54,525 bases of DNA from a virus (UHGV-0179380), one strand, 5' to 3'; shown: positions 1,596 through 4,289, numbered from the stretch's first letter. A program made the numbers and translations. Notes: generated from the letters alone by a model not told the origin.

Positions 1596-4289
1596 TTATT
1601 TTTCGCTTCCGGTCAACTGCCGGACAAGCGCTTCAAGTTTAGTGATCCGCTCATCCATGACGGCAATGTTAGCTCGTAAGCTGGCGTTTTCTTCCTCCAG
1701 TTCGGTGACGCGGTTATCTGTTTCGCGTGCCACCTGAACAAGTAAACCAGTCACCGCCGCATAGTCAACATTAAGATAGCGCGTTTCTTCGCGTAGCTCG
1801 TTGCCGTCAACGGTCGGGCCTTGCAATGCTTCACCGTAATGAGTAAACGATCCTACAGCCTCAGGTAGCGCCTCCATAACCTCTTGAGCGATAACGCCAG
1901 CGTAAGGCAGGCCGTTTTCCTTAAGCGTGTAGGTGTACCCGTTCATTTTGCGGATTGCTTCAGTTGCATCACCTATAACCTGAATATTGTCTTTCAAGTC
2001 TCTGTCTGATGATTGGGTTACTGAAGTGCATGTGATGTTACCCTCAACCGCAAGCGAAGCAGAACCATCTGAAAGGTATTTAGCCATAAACAGCGTTTTT
2101 AATGTTGTTTCTGACTGGTCTGTATCTACCGCTTTAACTTCATAAATCAACGGAGCGCCAGACGAACCCCATGTAACAACATGGGCGTTAGCTGTGGTTG
2201 TAGAATATGCGGCGTGTCTAATGAATCCGCCAGATATTTCATTTACTACATAATTACCAGATGATTTCACCATGCCATTTATGGTTAGCTTGGGCATCGT
2301 CATCGCAATCTCTTCGCCAACGGTAATTCCGTTAAACAGGCCGACACGACCACCACTACAAATATAATAAAGTCCTTCAGTTGTTGCAGAATAAAAGCCA
2401 CACCGCCCCATCCTGAAGTCAAACATAACGTTAAGGTTTTTATGTGAACTCAAAGGATCTGATACACCCCAGGGAATAATAATTTCTGAATCTCTCCCTT
2501 CGTTATATATTACTTGAGCGGCTGGCGCTTCTGCTGTTACGCCTACTGGTAAGCGCATCGTAACAGGAAACGCCCTTGCTTCAACAAAAACGAAAAGCAA
2601 ATGCTCGTTATCTTTAGCTGAACAACAAATAGATTGCAACGCTATTTCACTTGCTGAATAACGATTATAATAACCGTAACCGCTATCTTTTCTGTCGCTC
2701 CATCCACCAGTCCTTACATAACCCGTAAATGAGTTACAGTTCATTGGATCTGAACCAGGGGCCGATTTTGTATGAATATCGATCTGATAGCCAGTTCTAA
2801 AGGCGCTATAATAATAAGCGTTTACGATTATCGGATAATATTTTCCATCCTCTACGCCGCTCGGTGCATTTATTGTTGTTAACTCACCTCCGCCTATCGT
2901 TGGGATATTGATATTTCTCCTTGTCTGTTCGGCGCTTTTAGGTTTGAAAGAGTCAGCTATAAATTCACCGTTTACGTTAAGGCTTGCGTATCTGTTCACG
3001 CCGCCAGATCTCAAATGTAGTGTTAATTGGTCAGGTGACGACAAGTTTGTTTCAGGGTATATGGCACCATAAACACGTTCTGAACCAGAAGCGCCAACTA
3101 AAACGCTAGATAACAACCCGCCAGCAACCCATCCAGAAGTTGAATTATTAGTTCTTTTTAGCGATATATTTCCAAATTGTGGCGTACTGCTACCACCAAG
3201 CCCAATATTTTCCCTTACTTCATTGGCGTTTCTTCCGCCAGTTCCGCCCTGTGCTATTGCAAGTGGGATGTATTCGGAGTTTTGCAAGTCCCAAACCCCC
3301 CATGCTTTAGTATCTTTTATAACAAAAGAGGCGCTCTTTGACGCGTTATAAATAGCAGTGGAATCGGATAATTGCTCATACCTATCAATTTCAGAAGATT
3401 TCGTATGCTTATACCACAAAGGCCCAGTGGAGTCCGTCCACTTATAAGTGTAAGCTCTGCCAGTCATATGCCCTATAAAAAAACCAGAAAATGTTGGTAC
3501 GCCGCCTAAAGTTGGGCAAATAAAACCGGATAAATAGCGCTCACCTGAAGCAACAGAAGGCCACCCAACAGCCCCTTCCATGATGCGCAGAAAGCCGATA
3601 TAACCGGATGGATTGCCGGAAATATCAGGGCAATCTCGCGGATTTGCGCTAAGACCGATGTCAGTACCAACAATGGCCTGGGCCTGGTTGCGATAGTTAA
3701 GCGCGGCGGTGGCGGATTGCGCTGCGTTTGTCTCGCTGGTAGCTGCCGCAGTTTTGCTGTTGCTGGCTGATGTTTCGCTGGCTTTTGCTGCATCCTGAGA
3801 TGATTTAGCCGCAGTAGCAGACGTTGCCGCCGCATTTTTGTAACCTTCGGTTGTTTTCTTGTCAGCTTCAGTTTTTTGAGCGTTGGCGGTTGATTTCGCT
3901 GTTTCTTCGCGAATGTTGGCAAGAAGCTGATCCATCTGACCATCACCGCCGAAATCTCTCCACCACTCGACGGCGGCGGCGATCTCTGTTTCCTGGCCCT
4001 GATAGTAACGCAGTGTTTCAGCTACATCCTGAGCAAGACCATCGACGGAAATTGAGTCTGTAAGCAGGATGCTAAATTTTGTCCCGGCAGCGATGGCAGG
4101 GTTAGCCGCTGGCGTCACTGATAATTCAGTACCGCTCTTAATTTCGGTGATGGTAAAGATCTGTACCGGATTTCCAATGGCAATGAGCGTGCACCCTACA
4201 CGGATGAGAGAAAGCGGCGCGGAAAAGTTTGTTCCCGTACCTGTAACAGTATTGCCGCTAATGGCAATTGTTCCCGTTGTATAAATCAT
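1596..4289 (-). CDS. tail fiber protein with C-terminal S74-type intramolecular chaperone domain
   Basis: 897 aa; Ala/Ser/Thr/Lys-rich low-complexity shaft near N-terminus; C-terminal SSDRDLKDNIQ...GYTYTLKENGLPYAGVIAQEVMEALPEAV plus terminal coiled coil. Confidence 0.8.
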   Translation of the reverse strand: MIYTTGTIAISGNTVTGTGTNFSAPLSLIRVGCTLIAIGNPVQIFTITEIKSGTELSVTPAANPAIAAGTKFSILLTDSISVDGLAQDVAETLRYYQGQETEIAAAVEWWRDFGGDGQMDQLLANIREETAKSTANAQKTEADKKTTEGYKNAAATSATAAKSSQDAAKASETSASNSKTAAATSETNAAQSATAALNYRNQAQAIVGTDIGLSANPRDCPDISGNPSGYIGFLRIMEGAVGWPSVASGERYLSGFICPTLGGVPTFSGFFIGHMTGRAYTYKWTDSTGPLWYKHTKSSEIDRYEQLSDSTAIYNASKSASFVIKDTKAWGVWDLQNSEYIPLAIAQGGTGGRNANEVRENIGLGGSSTPQFGNISLKRTNNSTSGWVAGGLLSSVLVGASGSERVYGAIYPETNLSSPDQLTLHLRSGGVNRYASLNVNGEFIADSFKPKSAEQTRRNINIPTIGGGELTTINAPSGVEDGKYYPIIVNAYYYSAFRTGYQIDIHTKSAPGSDPMNCNSFTGYVRTGGWSDRKDSGYGYYNRYSASEIALQSICCSAKDNEHLLFVFVEARAFPVTMRLPVGVTAEAPAAQVIYNEGRDSEIIIPWGVSDPLSSHKNLNVMFDFRMGRCGFYSATTEGLYYICSGGRVGLFNGITVGEEIAMTMPKLTINGMVKSSGNYVVNEISGGFIRHAAYSTTTANAHVVTWGSSGAPLIYEVKAVDTDQSETTLKTLFMAKYLSDGSASLAVEGNITCTSVTQSSDRDLKDNIQVIGDATEAIRKMNGYTYTLKENGLPYAGVIAQEVMEALPEAVGSFTHYGEALQGPTVDGNELREETRYLNVDYAAVTGLLVQVARETDNRVTELEEENASLRANIAVMDERITKLEALVRQLTGSEK

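Follow-up and report, generated by a model that had tools for sequence, protein, structure and literature searches.

A probable self-cleaving S74 chaperone at the C-terminus of a side tail fiber from an mEpimmI-group prophage

In phage T5, a siphovirus, the lateral tail fiber protein pb1 (1396 aa; PDB 4UW7/4UW8) ends in an S74 chaperone of about 133 aa with a Ser...Lys(+5) pair, Ser1264 and Lys1269, and the Thr1263-Ser1264 bond is cut (PMC4690869). The chaperone consists of a hairpin with two helices, β-hairpin "tentacles" and a terminal triple coiled coil, in that order (PMC4690869). The MEROPS S74 holotype, endosialidase gp17 of phage K1F (3GW6), carries a domain of the same Pfam family; gp17 is a trimeric host-recognition protein with this domain at its C-terminal end, and its upstream part is an enzyme with a β-propeller and a triple β-helix stalk. 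In both proteins, an Asp and an Arg from the upstream triple β-helix complete the active site (Asp1239/Arg1250 in T5, Asp886/Arg897 in K1F). With two further proteins, gp37 of Salmonella phage S16 (PDB 6F45), the distal long tail fiber of a myovirus with a separate gp38 adhesin, and the ICA domain of MYRF (PDB 7DC3), a metazoan membrane-bound transcription factor, the fiber described here has only the chaperone domain in common.

The side fiber Stf of phage lambda requires a separate protein, Tfa, for assembly. The gene described here resembles stf in its accessory side-fiber role beside J and in closing the tail operon, but it is not followed by a tfa-like gene and has its chaperone built in. 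There is no ORF, and so no Tfa-type assembly gene, between its stop codon and the host gene abgT. A built-in chaperone would make such a gene unnecessary.

The mEpimmI phages have been described as Nus-dependent and non-lambdoid, with an Lpp exclusion lipoprotein; they integrate at ydaM, abgT or mppA, and their type II integrases direct them to the abgT 3' end (PMC11893012). That description mentions neither the fiber gene considered here nor S74. The DNA analyzed here, a stretch of 54,525 nucleotides assigned to a virus (UHGV-0179380; hereafter the window), begins with Escherichia coli abgT (positions 1-1446), and identity with annotated abgT is 99.4% up to position 1595. The remainder is a prophage. 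In its structural half, identity reaches 94% with MagusPhagus and 85-88% with mEp010, mEp013, mEp021, mEp044 and mEp554; coverage across these six phages is 80-99% at 85-94% identity, and the type-C Lpp shares 91% identity with its mEp013 counterpart. Genome similarity, gene order, the abgT junction and the type-C Lpp agree, and on these sequence grounds we conclude that the phage is a temperate siphovirus prophage of the mEpimmI group, unlike T5 in being temperate, and that its insertion site is the abgT 3' end. No att repeat turned up when the sequence from the abgT junction rightward to the end of the window, which stops just past the integrase gene, was searched.

The fiber is the final phage gene (Table 1). 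The order J, terminator, lipoprotein, fiber, terminator, host abgT is identical in mEp013, and this gene likewise comes last in mEp013, mEp044, mEp554, mEp010 and MagusPhagus. The mEp013 record labels it "hypothetical protein", and the terminator there that is equivalent to the last phage feature ahead of abgT is T21. A consensus scan of the minus strand revealed no sigma-70-like promoter upstream of the fiber gene, which may be transcribed either from a promoter of its own or by polymerase reading through the terminator at 4721-4741. The product matches phrog_6578 ("tail fiber protein", E 4e-180). An identical protein is already present in nr as "tail protein [Caudoviricetes sp.]" with a precomputed PF13884 assignment, and identical copies occur on three contigs.

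Table 1. Features of the fiber gene, its product and the neighboring locus (positions counted from the first nucleotide of the window).
Feature	Residues	Position	Strand	Basis or remark
Side tail fiber gene, 897 aa, 95.9 kDa precursor		1596..4289	minus	ORF list, phrog_6578, nr
N-terminal anchor domain	1-108	3966..4289	minus	~95% conserved in relatives
Ala/Thr/Ser-rich shaft, probably coiled coil	116-200	3690..3944	minus	A26/T13/S10 per 100
Globular β-rich domain D1	~212-367	3189..3656	minus	AF2 pLDDT 77-92; holds the most variable stretch (241-390)
Linker or interdigitated region	368-463	2901..3188	minus	monomer AF2 pLDDT <55
Globular β-rich domain D2	~464-637	2379..2900	minus	AF2 pLDDT 65-93
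Distal tip of mature fiber	638-760	2010..2378	minus	hypervariable 661-750; strands predicted 679-748
Predicted scissile bond and motif S-D-R-D-L-K	Ser760/Ser761; nucleophile Ser761, base Lys766	1992..2012	minus	
S74 intramolecular chaperone domain, 137 aa, 15.2 kDa	761-897	1599..2009	minus	
C-terminal long helix, predicted trimerizing coiled coil	843-893	1611..1763	minus	AF2, Leu heptads
GGAG ribosome-binding site		4298..4301	minus	8 nt before ATG at 4289; direct sequence reading
Intrinsic terminator, strong		1543..1566	minus	10-bp stem, then TTTTTGTGT; 30 nt past fiber stop
J, 1521 aa		4746-9311		gene-order reading
Bidirectional terminator		4721-4741		between J and lipoprotein
Lipoprotein, 82 aa		4467-4715	opposite to fiber	

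A preliminary description of this DNA had placed an S74-type chaperone of 150 aa, including a terminal coiled coil, at positions 1596-2060. The strings it quoted are present on the minus strand, where this interval corresponds to residues 744-897 plus the stop codon (1596-1598) and SSDRDLK to residues 760-766. An HMM search with PF13884 (Peptidase_S74) bears out the domain: residues 761-812 match profile positions 1-57 of 58 with 53.2 bits (E 3.6e-14), compared with a gathering score of 22 bits. The isolated C-terminus alone scores 55.3 bits, and the founding K1F endosialidase, scanned as a control, reaches 36.3 bits, less than the fiber itself. The presence of an S74-type intramolecular chaperone at the fiber C-terminus is thus confirmed at the sequence level, far beyond chance, although the chaperone proper is shorter than the 150 aa first claimed.

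The placement of the domain is also typical of the family. Across 1.84 billion representatives of 50%-identity clusters, an exhaustive search found the S74 domain in 8,052 protein clusters at E ≤ 0.001. Among relatives taken from the best 150 of these, the serine lies no more than 200 residues from the C-terminus in 130 of 134, and the median distance from serine to end is 120 aa, compared with 137 aa in the window fiber. In keeping with the family, for which about 120-150 aa are expected, the domain sits at the extreme C-terminus of a presumably trimeric fiber and closes with a predicted trimerizing helix, and tail-fiber families of PHROG match the protein.

The catalytic dyad of the family, a lysine five residues past a serine at the N-terminal edge of the domain, is present. 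In the PF13884 profile, Ser761 stands at position 1 and Lys766 at position 6, the pair that corresponds to Ser1264 and Lys1269 in T5. In K1F the profile aligns residues 916-971 with positions 6-58, and the protein reads T910-S911-N-G-E-R-K916. Because these profile positions are shared, the catalytic Ser911 and Lys916 of K1F lie in one column each with Ser761 and Lys766. S16 gp37 aligns directly at the cleavage motif ("VSSDRRIK"), and in 7dc3 the corresponding stretch of the MYRF domain is "PADLRAK", the crystallized chain having an alanine where the serine is expected. Ser761, Asp762 and Lys766 are invariant across 46 close relatives. Among diverse domains from the best 150 of the 8,052 clusters, serine and lysine occupy the dyad positions in 140 of 142, the other two having cysteine and lysine, and Asp762 is kept in all 143. 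From these alignments, self-cleavage at Ser760/Ser761 appears likely; it would divide the precursor into products of 80.8 kDa (residues 1-760) and 15.2 kDa (residues 761-897).

The environment of the dyad differs from that in T5 and K1F. The auxiliary residues Arg(-14) and Asp(-25) have no counterpart in the fiber, in which these offsets hold Ala747 and Ala736, and none of the positions from -1 to -16 carries a conserved arginine among 134 members of the subfamily. Its common residues are instead G(-11), [F/L](-15), C/A(-7) and, often, D(-20). As the auxiliary residues lie outside the Pfam and MEROPS definitions, membership in S74 is unaffected, but this subfamily must form its oxyanion hole in another way than T5 and K1F do.

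We modeled residues 675-897 as a monomer with AF2 (mean pLDDT 67, below 50 at 772-805). The model places strands at 679-748, helices at 775-782 and 801-811, a long hairpin at 812-841 and a final helix at 843-893. Despite the low confidence, this predicted order agrees with the description of the T5 pb1 chaperone, in which two helices, a β-hairpin "tentacle" and a terminal coiled coil follow one another. The predicted terminal helix is longer in the window fiber, at about 50 residues compared with 24 in pb1. The coiled coil proposed in the preliminary description is consistent with the predicted helix (pLDDT 73-91), its heptad register, in which the d positions read Y-L-T-L-L-M-L-L, and weak coiled-coil matches in this segment. 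A Foldseek search of the PDB with the monomer model returned nothing at E ≤ 1e-3, and 3gw6 appeared at E ~1. A missing match is what a domain formed only within an intertwined trimer would give; the chaperone fold is suggested, not confirmed, by the model. Comparison of the K1F C-terminus with our family alignment, profile against profile, gave no meaningful alignment, and the local pairwise score was only 33; the link to K1F was drawn through the shared PF13884 columns.

Upstream of the chaperone, the sequence resembles that of an ordinary fiber with knobs, assembled from modules. The best PDB sequence matches are 7vyv, 7vz3 and 7lzj (each labeled "Depolymerase", E ~1e-31), and they are limited to residues 3-189, which comprise the anchor and the beginning of the Ala-rich shaft; residues 4-175 of the Klebsiella phage depolymerases 7vyv and 7lzj are matched at E 1.6e-31. 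The shaft gives a weak match to that of T7 gp17. No Pfam family covers residues 190-760, and the NCBIfam search gave no family for the fiber. AF2 modeling of residues 203-700 from 38 sequences (mean pLDDT 70) yielded two confident, compact β-rich domains, D1 and D2, and low confidence at 368-463 and 638-700. A conserved QGGTGG..NIGLG fiber motif at about 345-375 runs from the end of D1 into the linker and gives a short match to the fiber 7z47, and phrog_745 and phrog_36614 match residues 471-593 in D2. Nearly all Foldseek matches in BFVD are tail fibers (Seurat, navn, T5-like SP01, T-even gp37), including T1/Tls-type fibers annotated as "Peptidase S74 domain-containing". As in T5 pb1, the chains possibly interdigitate as a trimer over a short segment just ahead of the cleavage site, which would account for the low confidence of the monomer model at 638-700.

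The relationship to T5-like fibers extends beyond the chaperone. The L-shaped fibers of T5-like phages are about 45% identical to the window fiber over residues 211-887, and our fiber profile matches DT57C LtfA (8hqz_d) at E 4.5e-7, with no match to T5 pb1 itself in the PDB sequence search. The window fiber differs from pb1 in its anchor, which is of the Klebsiella-phage depolymerase type, and in its shorter length. Closer relatives, E. coli prophage proteins in RefSeq, carry names such as "pyocin knob domain-containing S74 family peptidase" or "tail fiber domain-containing protein" (e.g., WP_235384612.1). These and the mEp and MagusPhagus proteins share 75-98% identity with the window fiber in the N-terminus and the chaperone, and their middle is mosaic.

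A BLAST comparison with 119 relatives places the breakpoints near residues 108, 203, 302/362, 452/457, 681 and 701. Per-position identity to relatives is about 95% over residues 1-90, falls to 33-60% at 241-390 and 43-60% at 661-750, and rises again to 83-99% over 751-897. The anchor and the chaperone behave as conserved cassettes, and variation is concentrated in the first globular domain and the distal tip. The preliminary description had suggested that the module upstream of the chaperone might determine host range. The variable regions fit this suggestion and make it plausible, and they may bind a receptor.

Most relatives (988-1160 aa) also contain an extra module of 90-170 aa past residue 680, seen for example in P0002, P0004, P0018 and P0118 with the motif "DWNxQQSD...GGFHV...FYARSFEAGVDKGW". 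The RefSeq names presumably refer to this module as the "pyocin knob", for which the NCBIfam search gave no family even with the relatives so named. Sequence comparison indicates that the window fiber lacks the module and that residue 680 joins the post-module segment directly. Three proteins of 900 aa with 77-84% identity (P0015, P0017 and P0024) have the same junction sequence, and the knob-less form accounts for about 13 of the 119 relatives, roughly one in ten. Its recurrence in divergent relatives points to a maintained lineage, not a one-off deletion.

These observations bear on three other readings of the gene. The preliminary description implied a β-helical receptor-binding or depolymerase module upstream of the chaperone, and the upstream region could accordingly be a trimeric parallel β-helix tailspike that degrades capsule or O-antigen. 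The resemblance to Klebsiella depolymerases is confined to the anchor and shaft, however, and we found in the fiber no parallel β-helix catalytic domain, no glycosidase or lyase family and no other enzyme domain of the kind that precedes the chaperone in K1F. Given compact β-rich domains and fiber-type Foldseek matches where a β-helix had been proposed, and no Pfam family over the whole stretch, we rejected the depolymerase reading as very improbable. It is just as hard to regard the gene as a decaying remnant in a defective prophage whose missing knob marks an inactivating deletion. One relative, P0002, is 94% identical and has 150 additional residues after residue 680, and among 5,426 complete E. 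coli genomes there is no match covering at least 80% of the fiber gene, both of which would suit decay. Yet the reading frame is intact and has its own ribosome-binding site and terminator, the identical protein occurs on separate contigs, the knob-less architecture recurs, and the structural, integrase and lysis-region ORFs of the window form a complete set. We therefore consider a pseudogene highly unlikely and rejected it.

A third reading concedes that the S74 domain aids folding but holds that it is never cleaved, remaining on the mature fiber as a pseudo-protease cap. The missing oxyanion-hole pair of T5 and K1F speaks for such a cap, and the unusually strong conservation of the chaperone could reflect a further role. 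However, an exchangeable folding cassette would show equally high conservation, and the serine, the adjacent aspartate and the lysine are strictly kept, the dyad also in nearly all of the diverse relatives that likewise lack Arg(-14). A strict dyad in the absence of this arginine argues that catalysis persists and that another residue supports it, perhaps Arg763, which is near-invariant. On the strength of dyad conservation, we rejected the uncleaved cap as improbable, if slightly less so than the depolymerase or the pseudogene.

The reading we prefer, to which we assign a probability of roughly 0.8, is that of a side tail fiber matured by a self-cleaving S74 chaperone. By analogy with T5 pb1 and K1F, the fiber would be made as a 96-kDa precursor, three chains of which would associate first through the leucine-rich helix at 843-893. 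The chaperone would fold next and template trimerization of the distal tip (~640-760), and folding would then advance from the tip toward the N-terminus. When the tip has taken its proper form, Lys766 would activate Ser761 for attack on the Ser760-Ser761 peptide bond, releasing the 15-kDa chaperone and leaving a mature fiber of three 81-kDa chains ending at Ser760. The conserved N-terminal 108 residues would anchor this fiber to the tail tip. Its variable knob-like domains and hypervariable tip (241-390 and 661-750) would probably bind a surface glycan in reversible adsorption, and the separate J protein would engage an outer-membrane protein receptor. A more specific version, in which the knob-less proteins form a lineage that uses 661-750 as its receptor-binding tip and has a variant S74 active site perhaps relying on Arg763, strikes us as tentative and, taken as a whole, rather unlikely.

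The fiber is an uncharacterized but otherwise ordinary addition to the well-known S74 class, and RefSeq already names its relatives S74 peptidases. Its main value lies in annotation and engineering, and no new question of biology follows from it. The mEpimmI literature overlooked this gene; the unannotated last gene of these gut-prevalent coliphages can now be identified as encoding a probable self-chaperoning side fiber, for which an exact maturation site, Ser760/Ser761, is predicted. The knob-less form and the missing Arg(-14)/Asp(-25) pair are of minor interest. The analysis also separates conserved cassettes (1-108 and 761-897) from variable segments that probably decide host range (241-390, 661-750 and the optional knob), and this map can guide the exchange of receptor-binding modules or predictions of the O-antigen-bearing strains to which these phages can adsorb.

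P0027, P0056, P0057, P0058 and P0068, which are BLAST relatives of the side tail fibre, 1056-1064 aa in length, align to residues 1-757/769 of the window protein and then align again to residues 701-897. Judging from these two overlapping alignments, the pre-chaperone tip segment is present twice in each, flanking an inserted module.

The 3' end of E. coli abgT is the insertion site of the prophage. The junction sequence up to position 1595 is 99.4% identical to that of several E. coli genomes in which related prophages occupy this site as well. This location agrees with the abgT / type II integrase class on record for mEpimmI phages (PMC11893012).

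Features neighbouring the side tail fibre gene.
Feature	Position in window	Strand	Remarks
abgT host junction region	1-1595		abgT ATG at window start; ORF of 481 aa
Lipoprotein gene	4467-4715	+	82 aa; lipobox LTGC; phrog_12984 match
Terminator hairpin, perfect	4721-4741	both directions	AACCCCGCG...CGCGGGGTT
J-type central fibre	4746-9311	-	1521 aa

Between J and the fibre gene, on the strand opposite to theirs, lies a small lipoprotein gene whose product shares 91% identity with the 'type-C' Lpp of the mEpimmI phage mEp013. The 'type-C' class has been shown by experiment to exclude LamB-dependent phages, lambda included. This suggests that the J protein of the prophage uses LamB. This J is far longer than that of lambda, and its C-terminal third contains a long series of near-identical repeats, ~28-30 aa in length and with the pattern 'IDKAIADET.ARTEAISGVNASISTL.S'. 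The series resembles a coiled coil.

The bidirectional terminator hairpin separates the stop codon of J from that of the lipoprotein gene, and the fibre gene is placed past this hairpin. A consensus scan found no promoter on the fibre-gene strand. Transcription of the fibre gene may follow either of two candidate routes: antitermination read-through or initiation at a promoter of its own.

Unusual S74 domains were also seen in the 50%-identity cluster library. Among the best 150 of its 8,052 matching clusters, two domains, those of P0177 (residue ~543) and P0207 (residue ~223), have cysteine in place of the nucleophilic serine while keeping the lysine. These two could represent versions of the self-cleaving chaperone that use a Cys-Lys pair. 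In the same best 150 of 8,052 clusters, the S74 domain is C-terminal in 130 of 134 cases, which makes one stretch of P0212 unusual. This giant library protein of 5473 aa contains four S74-like stretches, and the one at residues 3739-3855 is internal, distant from the C-terminus.
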